A program made the translations under genes and the position numbers. 64,000 nt of DNA, taken from the NCBI GenBank assembly GCA_036337435.1, contig JAYZEG010000037.1:32001-96000 (forward strand). The letters are read 5' to 3'. Positions 14,131 to 21,182 of the stretch are shown piece after piece. The notes below the pieces were generated by a model. The model worked only from the letters and a program-made list of their open reading frames with translations, was not told the DNA's origin and did no database searches. Source of the DNA: Myxococcota bacterium. GTDB taxonomy: Bacteria > Myxococcota_A > Bradymonadia > UBA7976 > UBA1532. Every line of letters starts with the position of its first letter. Position 1 is the first letter of the stretch.

Positions 14131-16902
14131 CTACTCTCCAAAATTTCCGTCGAAAATCCACGCGGCAGGAACACCAAATAGGCGTGGTTCCCTCAAGCCC
14201 AGTGGAACGCCCGGAGGTAGGTCAAACTCCTGTAGGTCGTCGGGGATTACAAAGTCGGGTAATGGCAAGGTGGGCAATCCATCATTCAGTGCTTGGTCAA
14301 TGGTTTGCTGTATCACGCGCGTCAACGTATCCTCGAGTACTTGGCGTGCTCGATCCGGGATCTCAGCCCCGGCAAGACTGAGGTGAAACGCATCGATACG
14401 TACGCGCTGGAAAGCGATGTCACGCTCTCCCTGGATCTCGACCCCGGCTTCAATAATTGCAGCCAAGCGCACTCGTATGGGATCAACAAAGAAATCGGGA
14501 TGTACAACCCCCGCTGATAATGGACCCACCATCACCTTCACCGTCGATTCACCATCGACACCAATCACCCAAGGGGGTTGAGGAAAGCGGAGAAATACCT
14601 CTGTACCGTCGGGTAAATCTTGACCCAATCCGGCAACAAGCCCCCCCGCCTCAGCCTCGAAGTAGCCGCCCCGCCAGAGTCGGTACATAATTTGATTGAG
14701 AAGGCCAAGCTTGATAAGCGCACCGACAGACCGCCCGTCCGGTACAGCCGCAACCTCTTCCCCTGGAATCAACGGGACACCGATACCTGGGGCAGCGATC
14801 ACATCTGGCCCCGATACACCCGTGTTCACTCCAATGGTCGCTGAACCAGGAACGAAATCGAGGCGTCCTAGACTCGCATTGATGGAAAGGCGGAGATCGG
14901 GCCCGCCAGTTAAACTTGGTATGTCGAAACCCTGAGCCAACTCACCAATATCGACATTACTCAATAAGTCCGTCAGAACCCGATCAATGTTATCTGTGAG
15001 AAAATCTCGAATGGCGTCCGTGATGGTGTCTCTAATTAAGCCTTCGAACGCTTCAAACACCAATTCGAGCAAAAAACCAAGAATCCCGCTAAAGTCGGCA
15101 TCTAGATCGCCAACTCTCACCTCATTTAGGTTTCGCAATGTAATGTCGGGCTGGCCATTTCCGCGAAGGCCAACATCAAAGGTCATGTCAAGAGTGATGT
15201 GTTCCGCTCGCATCCGAACGCGGTTACCGAGGGTTCCGTTGAGCTTGGCATTTACGTTTTGCTCTCGGAATGCAACCCGGATGCGCATGCCCCGATCGAC
15301 AAGATTTAGCTCAAACAAGTTCGGTCCATTATTATTATACGACCGATATTCAACGCCTAAACGAAACAGACAAATTCCGAGGACTCGGGCGCGACATTCC
15401 GAGGGTACAAGTGGATTTTGGGCGGCCGCAGACCGATCGACCGTATCCTCGAGGCCTTGACTATTGATGACGCGTCGGAGGACATCAGCCAGACTTCGAA
15501 TCGGTGCGCTCGGCGCGCCATCGTCGAGGCTGCCCTGGCCGAGACGAAGCTGGAGTGCATCCAGGTGAGGTAAGTCGGCCGCAGCGAAACGATCCGAAGC
15601 GTAGTATGCGCAGAACGTAGACGTTTCATTCTCACCGTCGCTGGCAATGATGTCATGGACGTTGAGACCCCATTGAACTGGCACCTCAGCACTCCACCGG
15701 CCATCGTCTTGCAGGTTCGCTGCCACGCCATCCACGGTAAGACTTTCGACGCCCGCGATATCGGCGACCGTACCCGAAAGGCGATGAACACCACCAGGCG
15801 GAATCGGAATGACATCGCCCATTTCCGGTGAAACGCAGTCGACTCCGGGCCCGCCATAATCAACTAGAATTCGAATCTCTTCAGAGAGCTCACGTTCTTC
15901 CCAAGTCTCCCCCAACACGCGCACACTCAAGGTATACTCGCCTTCCTGAACACATTGAAACCGACCATCACCAAAGGTAGGTAGGGGTGGATCACTCGAG
16001 AATTCTACGGGTGCTCCGCTCACAGTGTTCCCGAACTGATCCGACACCTGAGGGATCAACTCCAAGACCGATCCAACTCGGTAGATGGGTCTTTCAGGAA
16101 ATCGTGTCACGCGTAGGCCAGCGGGAAGACCCGCTTTGACTTGTAACGACAAAGCGGGCGTGAACTCAACACCAGGTAATTCACATGCGACGCCAAATGT
16201 GCCCGCACCATCAACTCGAAAAGTCATGCCTCGCCGCTCTAAATTTCGCGGCGGTGGTGAAAATTGAACCTCGAAATTTTCATCCTCGGTTCGATTACCA
16301 AATTCGTCAAAGGACTCGCATTCGATATCAACTGTCTCCCCGGCATCAATGCTGGGTGAACTCATGCGAGTGACCGTACGCACCGGCCTCGCCGGCGTGA
16401 CCGTCCAAATCGCGGGCGTTGGATCCCTCAGACCCAGACTGTTCGCTGCACATACAACCGAGTAATCGCGAGCGATCCGACCGATCGCGCCGGCCTCGGT
16501 TCGCTCAAACCCAGTGTCTGGATAAATTTCGGGTCTTGCTCGAATCTCAGCAATCGGTTCACCCACTTGGTCGAGCACTTGGCAGGTAATTCGATTCTCA
16601 ATACCCGCCGCCGTGCGGCGTTCACCAACTCGCGTCTCAACAGCAAATGGGATCACCTCGAATTGGGCAGAATCTGGAGCCGCATCATCAACGATTGCCA
16701 TATCTTCAGGCAAAGAGAGGTCTGTCGTTGTGCCCAGATCGGCTGAGTCGGGGCCGAGATCATCGCGAGGCCCTGCATCCGTCTGAACAACCCCTGGCGG
16801 ACCGACCGATGCAACGGGTGCCTGCTGCTGGTCCTGACACGCCGTAAAAAATGTAAGTATAGGAATCATGATACGGCAAATGGAATACTTGTTAATGGAC
16901 AT
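14131..16902 (-). CDS. Large lipoprotein paralogous to 11928-14129: Ig-like domains plus probable BPI/LBP-like region
   Basis: GGAGG RBS before ATG 16902; lipobox FTAC; WGLNVHDIIASDG; GLLNQIMYRLWRGG motif. Confidence 0.7.
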   Translation of the reverse strand: MSINKYSICRIMIPILTFFTACQDQQQAPVASVGPPGVVQTDAGPRDDLGPDSADLGTTTDLSLPEDMAIVDDAAPDSAQFEVIPFAVETRVGERRTAAGIENRITCQVLDQVGEPIAEIRARPEIYPDTGFERTEAGAIGRIARDYSVVCAANSLGLRDPTPAIWTVTPARPVRTVTRMSSPSIDAGETVDIECESFDEFGNRTEDENFEVQFSPPPRNLERRGMTFRVDGAGTFGVACELPGVEFTPALSLQVKAGLPAGLRVTRFPERPIYRVGSVLELIPQVSDQFGNTVSGAPVEFSSDPPLPTFGDGRFQCVQEGEYTLSVRVLGETWEERELSEEIRILVDYGGPGVDCVSPEMGDVIPIPPGGVHRLSGTVADIAGVESLTVDGVAANLQDDGRWSAEVPVQWGLNVHDIIASDGENETSTFCAYYASDRFAAADLPHLDALQLRLGQGSLDDGAPSAPIRSLADVLRRVINSQGLEDTVDRSAAAQNPLVPSECRARVLGICLFRLGVEYRSYNNNGPNLFELNLVDRGMRIRVAFREQNVNAKLNGTLGNRVRMRAEHITLDMTFDVGLRGNGQPDITLRNLNEVRVGDLDADFSGILGFLLELVFEAFEGLIRDTITDAIRDFLTDNIDRVLTDLLSNVDIGELAQGFDIPSLTGGPDLRLSINASLGRLDFVPGSATIGVNTGVSGPDVIAAPGIGVPLIPGEEVAAVPDGRSVGALIKLGLLNQIMYRLWRGGYFEAEAGGLVAGLGQDLPDGTEVFLRFPQPPWVIGVDGESTVKVMVGPLSAGVVHPDFFVDPIRVRLAAIIEAGVEIQGERDIAFQRVRIDAFHLSLAGAEIPDRARQVLEDTLTRVIQQTIDQALNDGLPTLPLPDFVIPDDLQEFDLPPGVPLGLREPRLFGVPAAWIFDGNFGE

Positions 16903-17020
16903 TGGAACCCTCCGTATCGGCGACTCTATGGTCACTCAGAATGGTGGAACAGAGCAAGCAATTACAAATCGATGATCTCAGTTCTTGATTATCTAGGTCC
17001 CAAAAGCAGACAATCAGACC

Positions 17021-18934
17021 ATGAATGGAACCGTGAACAAGACAATTCCGCTGAGGGCAGGCATCCAAGGTCATCTGATGGTTTGGTTGACCATTGTCCC
17101 ATTGATTGCCTGCGGCGGTGATGAGTTGCCAAGTGTGGCAGACTTTGGGCGGCCAGACTTTCGAGTGGAATTCGACAGCAGCGGAAATAATCAAAGCCAA
17201 TGCGTTCAACAAACCGAGGTTTGTAATGGGCGCGACGACGACTGCGACGGTGCCATTGATGAGGAGCGGGACGTCCGCATTCAAGTTTTCGCAGATCCCG
17301 ACCACTGCGGTGCGTGTAATCGACGATGTGACGGGCCAAATGCTCGATTTGCCTGCCAGGTTGGTCAATGTGTGGTGGCAGCATGTGATCCAGGTTTTAT
17401 CGACTATAATGGTGAACCCGAGGATGGCTGTGAAGCGGACTGCGTCATCACGGCGGGCGGCCAAGAACTCTGTGATGACATCGATAACGATTGCGATGGC
17501 ACCATCGACGAGGACTTTGATCTTGAAAACGATCCGCAGAATTGTGGCGCGTGTCAGAGGGTCTGTAATGCCATCGCCAATGGCCTGAGTGGATGCGTAT
17601 CCGGGGGGTGCGAAATCGAACGCTGTGACCAGAATTGGCATGACTTGAATTCTGACATCAGCGATGGCTGCGAATACAGTTGTACGGAGCGGATTGGCAC
17701 CACGGCCAGTGAATTCTGTAATGGTCTTGATGACGATTGCGACGGACAGGTCGACGAGACGATGGGCATGCAACAACCGCCCATCCAATGCGGCATCGAA
17801 GGTGCCTGTCGATTCGACTGTGTATCGGAACAAGGCTGTGCGGATGATGAGATCTGCAATGATGGTCGAATTTGCGTACCTGCGGTTCCCGTCGAGATGA
17901 CCTGCGCCGACGATGGCGATTGCCAAGAGATTCACCCGGGCCTTGCCTGTATCTCGACAACCCGCAGACTGGGAAACGATAGAGTCACCGAACAGCGCTG
18001 TGTCGAGCGCTCGCACGAGCCAATGTGCGATGGAGCCCAAGGCTTCAGATGTATTTACTCGCTCGATTACCAACGGGCCGACGAGAGCGGGCGTTGCGAC
18101 GGTATCGACAATGATTGCGATGGCCGAACCGACGAAGATTTCATCGACGAGCTGTTCCTGGCCGACCGACAAACGCAGAGACCCTGCTCGTCCGGTCAGG
18201 GGGTTTGTCGACGAAATGGTGTTGTGACCTGTGGCCCCAACGGGGAACGCACCATTTGCAATGCCCCCATCGTGCCTGCGCAAACAAATTTGGACACGGA
18301 GTGCGACGCCATAGACCAAGATTGCGATGGTCTCGTTGACGAAGACTTCGACGATGCTGTGGTCGCCATAGACAACATAGAGATATTCGCCTACGAGGCC
18401 AGCCGTCCGGGCGCTTCGGCCGAACTCCGAGGGCTTGATCCAAATCCAAACGACGGCATCGAGACGTTTATTGAGTCCCGAGCATGTTCTCGACCTGGTG
18501 TGCTGCCTTGGGACGATGCCACCTGGAGCGAAGCGGCGGAGGCGTGCGCCCAAGCTGATGCGCGCCTTTGTACCGGTGATGAATTCGCCCGCGCTTGCGG
18601 CGGTGTTCAGACCCAACTTTACCCGTACGGAAATAGTTTCCGCTCGCTTCTCTGCAATGGCCAAACCTATGACACCGATGACGAACAGCCCGGTGTCCAA
18701 TCTCAGGCACTCGCTTGTGGTGCCATGGAAAGGTGCCAACGCGACGGTGTTTTTGACCTCTCGGGCAACCTCAAAGAATGGGTTATCGACAGCATCGGTA
18801 ACCTTCGGGCAGTCCGAGGCGGCAGCTATGCAACGGTTCTCGGTGGTGGTTTGGCATGCGATCAAGATGGAGATTGGAAAGACCGAAACTTCCACCACAG
18901 AAGCATCGGCTTCCGCTGCTGCCGCGACCGCTAG
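17021..18934 (+). CDS. Cys-rich lipoprotein with putative metal-binding repeats and a C-terminal FGE/SUMF1-like domain
   Basis: Five CxxxDxDCDGxxDE repeats, two DPxxCGAC repeats, DLSGNLKEWV...RGGSY...IGFRCC; lipobox LIAC (start may be 17078). Confidence 0.85.
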   Translation: MNGTVNKTIPLRAGIQGHLMVWLTIVPLIACGGDELPSVADFGRPDFRVEFDSSGNNQSQCVQQTEVCNGRDDDCDGAIDEERDVRIQVFADPDHCGACNRRCDGPNARFACQVGQCVVAACDPGFIDYNGEPEDGCEADCVITAGGQELCDDIDNDCDGTIDEDFDLENDPQNCGACQRVCNAIANGLSGCVSGGCEIERCDQNWHDLNSDISDGCEYSCTERIGTTASEFCNGLDDDCDGQVDETMGMQQPPIQCGIEGACRFDCVSEQGCADDEICNDGRICVPAVPVEMTCADDGDCQEIHPGLACISTTRRLGNDRVTEQRCVERSHEPMCDGAQGFRCIYSLDYQRADESGRCDGIDNDCDGRTDEDFIDELFLADRQTQRPCSSGQGVCRRNGVVTCGPNGERTICNAPIVPAQTNLDTECDAIDQDCDGLVDEDFDDAVVAIDNIEIFAYEASRPGASAELRGLDPNPNDGIETFIESRACSRPGVLPWDDATWSEAAEACAQADARLCTGDEFARACGGVQTQLYPYGNSFRSLLCNGQTYDTDDEQPGVQSQALACGAMERCQRDGVFDLSGNLKEWVIDSIGNLRAVRGGSYATVLGGGLACDQDGDWKDRNFHHRSIGFRCCRDR

Positions 18935-18980
18935 CCGGCCATCGGCCTGACTGGATTCGAAAAACATAGCCCAGAAACAA

Positions 18981-18996
18981 GCGATATACGTGCCAA
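18981..18996 (-). promoter_or_regulatory. Putative sigma54 (-24/-12) promoter
   Basis: Minus strand reads TTGGCACGTATATCGC with exact GG-N10-GC spacing; intergenic. Confidence 0.45.
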
Positions 18997-19046
18997 TTTA
19001 GATTGAGCTCGCAAATCCACATCGACCAAGCAGAGTGAGTACTTTT

Positions 19047-19366
19047 TGGGGGGGCATGTCCACCCCATTGAAGGGGGACCGTAAACCGATTGTGCCGTAG
19101 AAAAGAGTCCCCCCGGCAAGTCAGATCGACTCGCCGAGGGGAAAAAGATGGCTCACAGGGCGTCGTTCGCAGCCCCCGCGACCCGCTCCAGTCGGCCGGG
19201 CAAACCTTCCGAAGCTGCACGAGACAGTTTGCCTCGCGCTGCAGGCCACAAAAGCGGGCAAGCTTCAGTGGCGATGGCCGATGCGACTCGGCCTGAAAAG
19301 CTAGATGGGCAATCTAGCCTCAACACAGATACACGTGAGTGCATCTACCAGGGAGTGGACCCCCAG
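19047..19366 (-). ncRNA. Unassigned structured RNA candidate
   Basis: At least five hairpins plus end-to-end pairing; all five stem mismatches are A.C on + and G.U on -; includes a terminator-like 14-bp stem. Confidence 0.55.
19099..19141 (-). terminator. Putative intrinsic terminator
   Basis: Minus strand CCCCTCGGCGAGTC-gatct-GACTTGCCGGGGGG followed by ACTCTTTTCT. Confidence 0.5.
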
Positions 19367-19463
19367 CCACACACCAGAGGTATCCTGATCAAAAACCGGA
19401 CGTGGTCTGACGGAATTTCGGTGCGCTTGTATTTTTTTACCAATTTTAAAATCGCCGGTCAAC

Positions 19464-19472
19464 TTATCCACA
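19464..19472 (+). promoter_or_regulatory. Single perfect DnaA-box sequence
   Basis: TTATCCACA next to an AT-rich tract (19428-19451). Confidence 0.3.
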
Positions 19473-19634
19473 CCAGTTATGCGTCTAATTATCGCGAGTA
19501 GGTGCTCTCACTTTGGACAGTGAATTAAACGTCGAAGGCGCCAGAAATTATTCGGATTTAATGAGTCGAGATACGACGACAGTTGAGAGAGTACGCGCAA
19601 TCACCTATTGTGGAGAGCCACGAGGAGAGACGTT

Positions 19635-21182
19635 ATGAAACCAACGGTGATTCTAAATCGATGCGCAGACTATGATACACAGCGGATTGAAGAACTGGTT
19701 TTCAAGGGTCTTGAGCGTCTCGACTTGTATCCTCGGGGGCGCACTCTAGTTAAGCCAAACTGTGTAACCAGCGGCCCATACTTTCCTCACGCACACACTC
19801 GAGTCGAATTTCTCGAAGGTGTACTACGCGCCATCGAGCGGCGTGCACCCGAGCCGTTGGATGAACTCGCTGTAGGCGAACGATGCGGCATTACAGTGCC
19901 GACTCGCTTCGCCTATAATGGGGCAAATTACTATCCACTTCGGAAACGAATTAAAGGACTCAAATTCTACCATTTTGAGGAGTGTCCGCAGGTCGAAATC
20001 CCCCTCTATCACGAGGGTCGATTGCGGGATTCATTTTTTACCCCTGAGCCCGTTGCACAGGCTGACTTCTTCGTAAATTGCCCGAAGTTTAAGGCTCACC
20101 CCTGGACGACGGTCACCTTTTCTATGAAGAACTATATTGGGATTCAAGACGACCGCCATCGTCTGTTGGACCATGATCATCGCCTCAATGAAAAAGTGTC
20201 CGACCTGCAGTATATCGTGCAACCGCAGTTTGTAGTGACCGATGGCATTATCGCCGGTGAGGGCCGTATGCTCACCCCAACCCCCTTCGATTTAGGTTTG
20301 GTCGCCATGGGAAACAATCAGGTCGCCTTCGATTCTGTATGTTGCCATATCATCGGTGTCGATCCCATGAGTGTTGAACACATTAGACTGGCCTATGAAA
20401 ATGGTTTCGGGCCCGTAGACCTCTCGGAGATCGACATTGTTGGCGACCTCAGCCTCGACGAAGCCAAAGAACGTGGTCAGGGATTCGAAGTCGGGCTGAT
20501 ACGGGTTGAAGACTACTTCAAGGGAACCAAAATAAGAGCCTACGGCGGCCGACCACCAAGTGATGGTGGCCATGATTATTGCTGGGGAGGCTGTCCTGGA
20601 GCCCTTGAAGAAGCCATTGAAATCATGCGCTTATATGATCAACAAACCGATGAAAAACTACCACCGATGCACGTGGTATTCGGAGAGTATGACAAACCCA
20701 TTCAACCAGGTCCGGGTGAGAAGATCATTTTTATAGGAGACTGCGCTAAATACTCTGGTCAACTGGGGGAGCAACTCGTTCAACTGGAGAGTGTGTACGT
20801 TGACCGGAGTCAAAAACAGCCCTTGGATGCGGAGGCTGACGATATTTTTATGAAAATGTGGTCGGTGCGACGAAAGATGGCCAAGCTCAAAAACCAAGAT
20901 TATATTCGCATCGCTGGATGTCCCGTCAGCGTTGCGGAGCAAACTTTAATTTTGATCCAATTGGGCGGTCTTAAAAGCCCCTACTTCGATCCGAAGCAAG
21001 TCGTGCCCTTCGTGAGTGCCTATTTATCCTCGCGTACTCGAACGGCGTTCTCTCGTCTCTTTGGGATCAAATACAATCAGCCAGGCCCAATGTTACGGGG
21101 TCGGGCACGCCCCAAACTCAACTTACCCCCACCCGGGGTGCCGACCCCTCTTGAATTAAAATCACTGCCGTCTAAAGGCTAG
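19635..21182 (+). CDS. DUF362-domain protein with a Cys-containing C-terminal domain
   Basis: LVKPN, VNCPKFKAH, TFSMKNYIG, DGIIAGEG; GAGGAG RBS before ATG 19635. Confidence 0.85.
   Translation: MKPTVILNRCADYDTQRIEELVFKGLERLDLYPRGRTLVKPNCVTSGPYFPHAHTRVEFLEGVLRAIERRAPEPLDELAVGERCGITVPTRFAYNGANYYPLRKRIKGLKFYHFEECPQVEIPLYHEGRLRDSFFTPEPVAQADFFVNCPKFKAHPWTTVTFSMKNYIGIQDDRHRLLDHDHRLNEKVSDLQYIVQPQFVVTDGIIAGEGRMLTPTPFDLGLVAMGNNQVAFDSVCCHIIGVDPMSVEHIRLAYENGFGPVDLSEIDIVGDLSLDEAKERGQGFEVGLIRVEDYFKGTKIRAYGGRPPSDGGHDYCWGGCPGALEEAIEIMRLYDQQTDEKLPPMHVVFGEYDKPIQPGPGEKIIFIGDCAKYSGQLGEQLVQLESVYVDRSQKQPLDAEADDIFMKMWSVRRKMAKLKNQDYIRIAGCPVSVAEQTLILIQLGGLKSPYFDPKQVVPFVSAYLSSRTRTAFSRLFGIKYNQPGPMLRGRARPKLNLPPPGVPTPLELKSLPSKG

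Follow-up and report, generated by a model that had tools for sequence, protein, structure and literature searches.

The window, as we call the whole stretch of DNA analysed here, comprises 64,000 nucleotides from an uncultured marine member of the Myxococcota and carries, between two plus-strand genes, a region dense in inverted repeats. An earlier note on this DNA had proposed that positions 19047 to 19366 specify an orphan structured RNA encoded on the minus strand. The question therefore was whether such an RNA exists, where it begins and ends, and what it might do. It is uncommon to find in bacteria a structured RNA of about 300 nt in which many helices covary and which belongs to no known family, and several earlier examples led to new biochemistry. 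The minus strand of this locus very probably encodes a genuine, new and independently transcribed ncRNA.

Known RNA families did not account for the locus. At gathering scores, no family of Rfam 15 matched anywhere in the window, and with E values up to 10 over positions 18900-19650 only a 15-bit chance match to blv_FSE was returned. ARAGORN detected neither a tRNA nor a tmRNA in the window. Thus, the comparison with Rfam confirmed the earlier statement that no known family is represented. Canonical copies of tmRNA, which had no match here, are present elsewhere in two genomes of the same genus, G001 (169 bits) and G002 (171 bits). Likewise, bacterial type A RNase P RNA had no match at the locus and is found in canonical form, with 271-293 bits, elsewhere in G001, G002 and G003. 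SRP RNA also had no match here; each of the four genomes of the genus encodes it at another site, the window's own genome on contig C62. 6S RNA is, like the RNA described here, an abundant, structured and standalone RNA, but it forms one rod, about 185 nt long and opened by a central bubble, whereas the fold at this locus is a string of hairpins; no 6S match was obtained here, and G003 and G001 encode 6S RNA at other sites (51.1 and 45.5 bits, respectively). A full-text literature search found no relevant publication on this RNA or on the RNA biology of these uncultured marine Myxococcota. The RNA is a new family of a familiar general kind, the standalone ncRNAs of bacteria in which a loop motif is repeated, and its novelty lies in the motif and the modular layout.

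As a side observation, only about 600 bases separate the RNase P RNA gene from the tmRNA gene in G001 (contig C22, 397811-399190) and in G002 (contig C44, 1448-2788). Searches of the window's own assembly (87% complete) recovered neither gene, and the stretch carrying them is probably unassembled there.

The minus strand of positions 19427-19098 was predicted to fold with -156.8 kcal/mol into 111 pairs, 22 of them G.U, as compared to -127.1 kcal/mol and 5 G.U pairs for the plus strand. After mirroring of the minus-strand pairs onto the plus strand, no more than 89 of the 111 survived. For positions 19040-19370, -162.3 kcal/mol was obtained for the minus strand (shuffle z = -5.7) and -137.7 kcal/mol for the plus strand (shuffle z = -3.5). 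The earlier assignment to the minus strand had been drawn from mismatches that are A.C on the plus strand and become G.U on the minus strand. Since the minus strand has the lower energy and more G.U pairs, and since only 89 of 111 mirrored pairs survive, this argument holds.

In 5' to 3' order, the RNA consists of a variable 5' domain (P0, Ha and Hb), the hairpin pairs H1-H2, H3-H4 and H5-H6, and a terminator (Table 1). H1 to H6 form three tandem two-hairpin units that span 19321-19150 of the minus strand. All five hairpins listed in the earlier note recur in this fold: 19109-19141 is part of the terminator, and 19217-19239, 19276-19293, 19300-19318 and 19327-19346 correspond to H4, H2, H1 and Hb, respectively. 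The earlier note had missed the best-conserved hairpins, H3, H5 and H6, as well as the three UGCCC loops, the promoter and the 5' domain reaching to about 19427.

Table 1. Features of the minus-strand RNA gene (positions in the window; A5, alignment of the genus; A11, alignment of H5-H6 across three genera; MFE, minimum free energy).
Feature	Positions	Strand	Basis
-35 box, TTGACC	19457..19462	-	Motif TTGNNN-N17-TAWAAA at equal distance upstream of the RNA in 6/6 genus loci
Extended -10 (TGG + TAAAAA), hexamer 19439-19434	19434..19442	-	TGn before the hexamer in 5/6 loci
Predicted primary transcript, about 330 nt	19098..19427	-	Start near 19427 inferred from the promoter; RNA-seq contig cover 19150-19419
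P0, long irregular hairpin of the 5' domain	19369..19426	-	MFE fold; within RNA-seq contigs; sequence poorly conserved beyond the closest relatives
Ha, hairpin	19347..19368	-	MFE fold; similar local hairpin predicted in 5/6 loci, a different one in G001
Hb, hairpin	19327..19346	-	MFE fold
H1, unit 1, UGCCC loop at 19311-19307	19297..19321	-	A5 helix 1: 6/8 pairs changed on both sides, 93.8% of cells paired
H2, companion hairpin of unit 1	19276..19293	-	A5 helices 2 and 3
H3, unit 2, UUGCCC loop at 19261-19256	19245..19272	-	A5 helix 4: 6/9 pairs changed on both sides
H4, companion hairpin of unit 2	19217..19239	-	A5 helices 5 and 6: 6/9 pairs changed on both sides
H5, unit 3, UGCCC loop at 19202-19198	19185..19215	-	A11 outer stem: 6/7 pairs changed on both sides, three genera
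H6, companion hairpin of unit 3	19150..19184	-	A11 helix 3: 6/10 pairs changed on both sides; two RNA-seq contigs stop at its last base
Intrinsic terminator, 16-pair stem 19142-19108 then CUCUUUUCUA	19098..19142	-	Terminator scan tool; A5 helix 9, 95.5% paired

The RNA is structured and non-coding, has a length of about 270-330 nt, and is transcribed from a standalone gene with its own promoter and Rho-independent terminator. The promoter is sigma-70-like, and its sequence TTGACC-N17-TAAAAA is conserved on the minus strand in the alignment with G002 (80% identity). The -10 hexamer ends in A and not in the usual T, which explains why the promoter was absent from the list of the consensus scan tool. 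In the same alignment, conservation runs about 60 nt past the right edge assigned in the earlier note. A hairpin with a U tract equivalent to the terminator was present at the 3' end of every homologue. The boundaries given earlier, 19366 to 19047, had to be replaced, as the transcript runs from about 19427 to 19150 or 19098.

Two further long-range pairings had been proposed. In the first, the ends of the region (19047-19066 and 19351-19365) form a closing stem. Interrupted complementarity is present (75%), but the left arm is situated downstream of the terminator, where RNA-seq cover is absent. Pairing of the 5' segment with the 70 nt following the terminator was no better than that of shuffled sequences in all six genus loci (33 to 114 of 200 shuffles were at least as good), and the right arm forms the local hairpin Ha instead. 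The second, a GAAGCT/AGCTTC helix (19211-19266), was discarded because it is incompatible with H3, which covaries within the genus, and with H5, which covaries across genera.

The RNA is expressed, as it is found in seawater metatranscriptomes without its flanking mRNAs. Part of the stretch was present in 17 seawater metatranscriptome runs from 8 studies. Comparison of four runs from four studies yielded one contig of 231-261 nt each, with 0 mismatches (19151-19411, 19150-19407, 19181-19419 and 19189-19419). In these four metatranscriptomes, contig cover was zero over 18600-19149 and 19420-19900, and neither flanking gene was covered. Metatranscriptome contigs are assemblies, from which the strand, ends and level of an RNA cannot be read, and DNA may be present in RNA libraries; the missing flanking genes argue against DNA carry-over, without proving it. 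The 5' limit of the contigs at 19419 fits a start near 19427. Their stop at the end of H6 (19150/19151) may be due to trimming off of the terminator or to a mere assembly effect. Three more contigs matched only the core (19173-19215), with 3 mismatches, and diverged on either side, which points to expressed relatives of the RNA. Thus, the features of an independent bacterial sRNA gene were found together: the promoter motif in six of six loci, a scanned terminator, and RNA-library contigs from four studies confined to 19150-19419, with the limits as to strand and exact ends just given.

Homologues were found within and beyond the genus. The genus set comprises six distinct sequences, namely that of the window, those of three further genomes (G002, G001 and G003) and those of two metagenome contigs (L032 and L029); the G002 sequence is identical to a further metagenome contig, L031. 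Outside the genus (g1), five full-length homologues directly upstream of a DUF362 gene were identified in two genomes of genus g16 and three of genus g8, and a weaker, divergent variant in one genome of genus g15 (L044). The matches in g8, g16 and g15 contain several hairpins with U-UGCCC-G loops, an H6-like hairpin and the terminator. They were found by synteny, i.e., by scanning the loci of the DUF362 orthologues of the family with filters off, and this synteny-guided scan is more sensitive than model searches of the family and class. In the searches of family and class with model R1, in which a few tens of prefilter candidates were scored per genome, no further match survived inspection. 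The extra R1 matches in G024, G048 and G072 were driven by the terminator or by a T-arm and were without UGCCC hairpins. When 113 genomes of the class were searched with model R3, built from the H5-H6 rows of g1, g8 and g16, all nine known carriers were recovered, together with G073, which was rejected as coding sequence. An exact-pattern scan of genome contigs gave 15 matches, three of which were true (G001, G002 and G003); four of the other 12 were peroxiredoxin coding sequences (GEVCPANW), and the rest each showed one hairpin-sized match with no further UGCCC hairpins. The same scan of metagenome contigs gave six matches, three of them true. L034 was rejected as coding sequence (it reads CPADWSW), L033 as a hairpin-only match of 11 bits, and L030 for want of a model match. 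The known range is narrow: in one family, 9 genomes out of 28 are carriers (in g1, g8 and g16), to which the g15 variant and unassembled relatives in seawater RNA are added.

Helices covaried in the alignment of the genus (A5, CM-fitted) and in that of H5-H6 across g1, g8 and g16 (A11). In A5, 89.4% of the cells were paired and 31 of 66 pairs showed double changes; 0 of 500 shuffles were as good, and slid controls reached 35-51%. The corresponding values for A11 were 93.9% and 12 of 21 pairs; again, none of 500 shuffles did as well, and slid controls were at 26-60%. As both alignments were fitted to the model structure and the sequences are kin, these counts overstate independence; the raw sequences already show wholly different stems beneath identical loops. 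Thus, conservation of the RNA, accompanied by compensatory changes, extends over at least three genera of one marine Myxococcota family.

A coding role was rejected. The homologues have no ORF in common, frame and length vary, and Pfam was blank for both local ORFs. The frame across H5 reads VCPA(D/N/V/I)WSG; it is the only shared frame, and the core varies in it at codon positions 1 and 2. As a nucleotide string, the H5 core (19185-19215) corresponds to the peroxiredoxin motif GEVCPANW, and because of this resemblance exact-pattern scans also return AhpC-type genes (L008, L015, L017 and L020).

The dense inverted repeats and the apparent terminal complementarity could be taken for a MITE-like non-autonomous mobile element or for a functionless chance cluster of palindromes. 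Such an origin is highly improbable. The element is single-copy in the 4.38-Mb assembly and sits at one fixed syntenic site in all carriers, its terminal pairing did not exceed that of shuffled sequences, its helices covary, and the region is seen in metatranscriptomes. Of the two origins offered earlier, a standalone ncRNA or a non-autonomous element, the former stands, with promoter, terminator, covariation, contigs and the lack of an Rfam match on its side, and the latter falls with the copy count and the single site.

The genomic setting bears on whether the RNA acts on its neighbours. The flanking plus-strand genes are a gene with MopE motifs and an FGE-sulfatase domain and a DUF362 gene, and their order is kept in all six genus loci. 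The RNA adjoins the DUF362 gene in 12 of 12 carrier loci from four genera. In the window, G002, L032 and G001 it is antisense to both neighbours and divergent from DUF362, and in G003 (L004) and L029 the entire unit of promoter, RNA and terminator is flipped onto the neighbours' strand, with the flanking genes keeping order and strand. The g8 and g16 loci (n = 5) are divergent from DUF362 and the g15 variant is co-directional. Overall, the RNA is opposite in strand to both neighbours in four of six genus loci and in five of six loci of other genera.

A cis-acting leader or attenuator of DUF362, or an antisense regulator of a neighbour, might be read into the loci G003, L029 and L044, where the RNA lies just upstream of DUF362 on the same strand, with the terminator between them. 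This is very unlikely, however, as the RNA is opposite and divergent in the remaining nine loci, overlaps no gene, has its own promoter in every genus locus, and is represented by RNA-seq contigs that end before both genes. Since the unit is inverted between species, a cis-leader or antisense role cannot hold. A riboswitch or other cis-regulatory leader was rejected on the same ground of antisense orientation in most loci, and the earlier view that the RNA is not a leader of the two plus-strand genes agrees with the inversion.

The MopE/FGE-sulfatase gene (17021-18934, plus strand) encodes four putative metal-binding motifs of the MopE type and a C-terminal FGE-sulfatase domain (Pfam); it adjoins the RNA in g1 and in two of three g8 loci. 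A 691-codon open frame on the minus strand (16892-18967) lies antisense across nearly all of this gene and, given the Pfam domains of the plus-strand frame, looks like a shadow ORF.

The constant association with DUF362 could also mean that the RNA is no regulator but the structural or catalytic part of a dedicated ribonucleoprotein, perhaps in partnership with the DUF362 protein. Many covarying helices, an invariant core and a size in the range of larger orphan ncRNAs would suit such a function. We consider it unlikely, since synteny within one family may simply be inherited and DUF362 orthologues also occur with no RNA nearby. No RNA was found in the upstream regions of the orthologues from five other genera (g6, g9, g14, g10 and g2), in that of G024, or upstream of DUF362 in another genome of g15, where the contig breaks off about 200 nt from the gene. 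Moreover, there is no known link between DUF362 and RNA; the DUF362 protein had a weak NCBIfam match, and no relative was found in the PDB.

A single loop sequence recurs along the RNA. H1, H3 and H5 share the loop U-UGCCC-R, with a closing pair that is usually U.G. UGCCC occurs in three loops in the window's RNA, G002, G003 and L029, and the first loop deviates in L032 (UGCCU) and G001 (GCGCC). The g16 and g8 RNAs have 3-4 UGCC-type loops each. In genus g8, the terminator (L055:1034-1100, L043:3090-3152 and L048:3418-3479) contains a nested small hairpin with a UUGCCCA loop, i.e., a fourth copy of the motif. Unit 3, H5-H6, is the conserved core. The sequence GGYUUGCCCGGCC, which covers the H5 inner stem and loop, is invariant in 11 of 11 H5 rows; accordingly, none of the four pairs of the inner stem (A11 helix 2) changed on both sides, and the loop is likewise unchanged. 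The invariance of the inner stem above an outer stem in which 6 of 7 pairs covary suggests that shape plus sequence is recognised. The units resemble each other enough for a model of H5-H6 only to pick up, at 19.3 bits (E 0.068), unit H1-H2 of L029. Further units scored 20-22 bits with a later model, detections that are partly circular because the training rows of that model held the L029 H1-H2 unit.

From this pattern, a decoy function is tentatively proposed, in which the RNA would be a multivalent platform that titrates an RNA-binding protein through its repeated loops. It would act in trans, and its three or four identical loops would bind the same partner in several copies; this partner would most likely be an RNA-binding protein with sequence specificity, titrated by the abundant RNA. 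The logic would be that of CsrB/RsmZ, with another loop motif. This reading is favoured by the regular spacing of the motif and by H5, in which closing stem and loop are equally invariant amid otherwise covarying pairs. It is also favoured by the length and apparent abundance of the RNA, both of which are in keeping with protein-titrating RNAs. In g1, g8 and g16 the loop is present on three hairpins per RNA (four in g8), and the stems beneath it change freely. CsrB, RsmY and RsmZ are likewise standalone abundant RNAs with an intrinsic terminator and a string of hairpins that repeats one short loop motif. Unlike them, the RNA described here carries UGCCC and not GGA in its loops, so that the GGA loops by which that group is recognised are lacking, and it has no Rfam match. 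Furthermore, it has only 3-4 copies of the motif, each alternating with a motif-free hairpin.

The same loops would also suit a base-pairing sRNA with redundant seeds, in which 3-4 exposed UGCCC loops pair with GGGCA sites of mRNAs and alter their translation or stability. In sX13 of Xanthomonas, RsaE/RoxS of Firmicutes and 6C of Actinobacteria, which are about 90-120 nt in length, C-rich loops pair with G-rich mRNA sites. In common with the present RNA, these sRNAs have a terminator and identical C-rich loops on two or three hairpins, and one C-rich motif in the loops of at least two hairpins, as is characteristic of C-rich-loop sRNAs, was indeed found. The C-rich single-stranded loops are kept across genera while the stems vary, the terminator with its U tail is typical of such sRNAs, and the gene is an independent transcription unit. 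Base-pairing sRNAs, too, may have repeated C-rich loops, which speaks against the decoy. Nevertheless, a base-pairing sRNA, the main rival of the decoy, appears somewhat less likely. The RNA is long for the class, with about 300 nt and nine to ten hairpins, its UGCCC loop has a conserved closing U.G pair, and no Rfam match was obtained. A seed of 5 nt is short, and loop pairing alone leaves the invariance of the H5 inner stem unexplained. GGGCA was present in 420 of 5971 crude translation-start windows, which ranked it 6th among 20 permutations of the same composition; this lack of enrichment carries little weight, as the windows relied on guessed gene starts and a small regulon would escape such a count.

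For the favoured decoy, the genome was scanned for hairpins with the same loop. UGCCC-loop hairpins were not enriched genome-wide (49 with stems of at least 6 pairs, 1.4-fold, 46th among pentamer loops), and therefore there is no sign of an mRNA regulon sharing the hairpin. A wider view, which we regard as speculative and rather unlikely in its full extent, would be that the RNA represents a multivalent regulatory RNA of a new class, found in marine Myxococcota that are probably predatory. Its U-UGCCC-G loops would capture an RNA-binding protein of undescribed specificity (or G-rich RNA) as a global switch like CsrB/RsmZ with another recognition code, possibly tied to the adjacent DUF362 gene.

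The RNA may also be set beside the IMES RNAs, orphan structured ncRNAs that were first seen in marine metagenomes and metatranscriptomes. As with RNAs of this type, it is known only from uncultured marine bacteria and is visible in seawater metatranscriptomes though the organism is rare. It differs from them in having no match to such families curated in Rfam 15 and in belonging to a Myxococcota family. As it is seen in ocean RNA libraries, is modular and has a repeated loop that can be mutated, it offers a tractable entry to post-transcriptional control in uncultured marine Myxococcota. It can enter RNA family libraries, which would allow these intergenic regions to be annotated.

Finally, some stems depart from Watson-Crick pairing in a recurrent manner. 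In H1 of G002, CUAG is changed to CGAG on both strands, by which Watson-Crick pairs are lost and tandem G.A/A.G mismatches arise instead. Similarly, in H5 of G003 and L029, GCGACAG stands opposite CUGGAGC, and tandem G.A/A.G mismatches replace Watson-Crick pairs. These replacements in H1 and H5 hint at non-canonical pairs.
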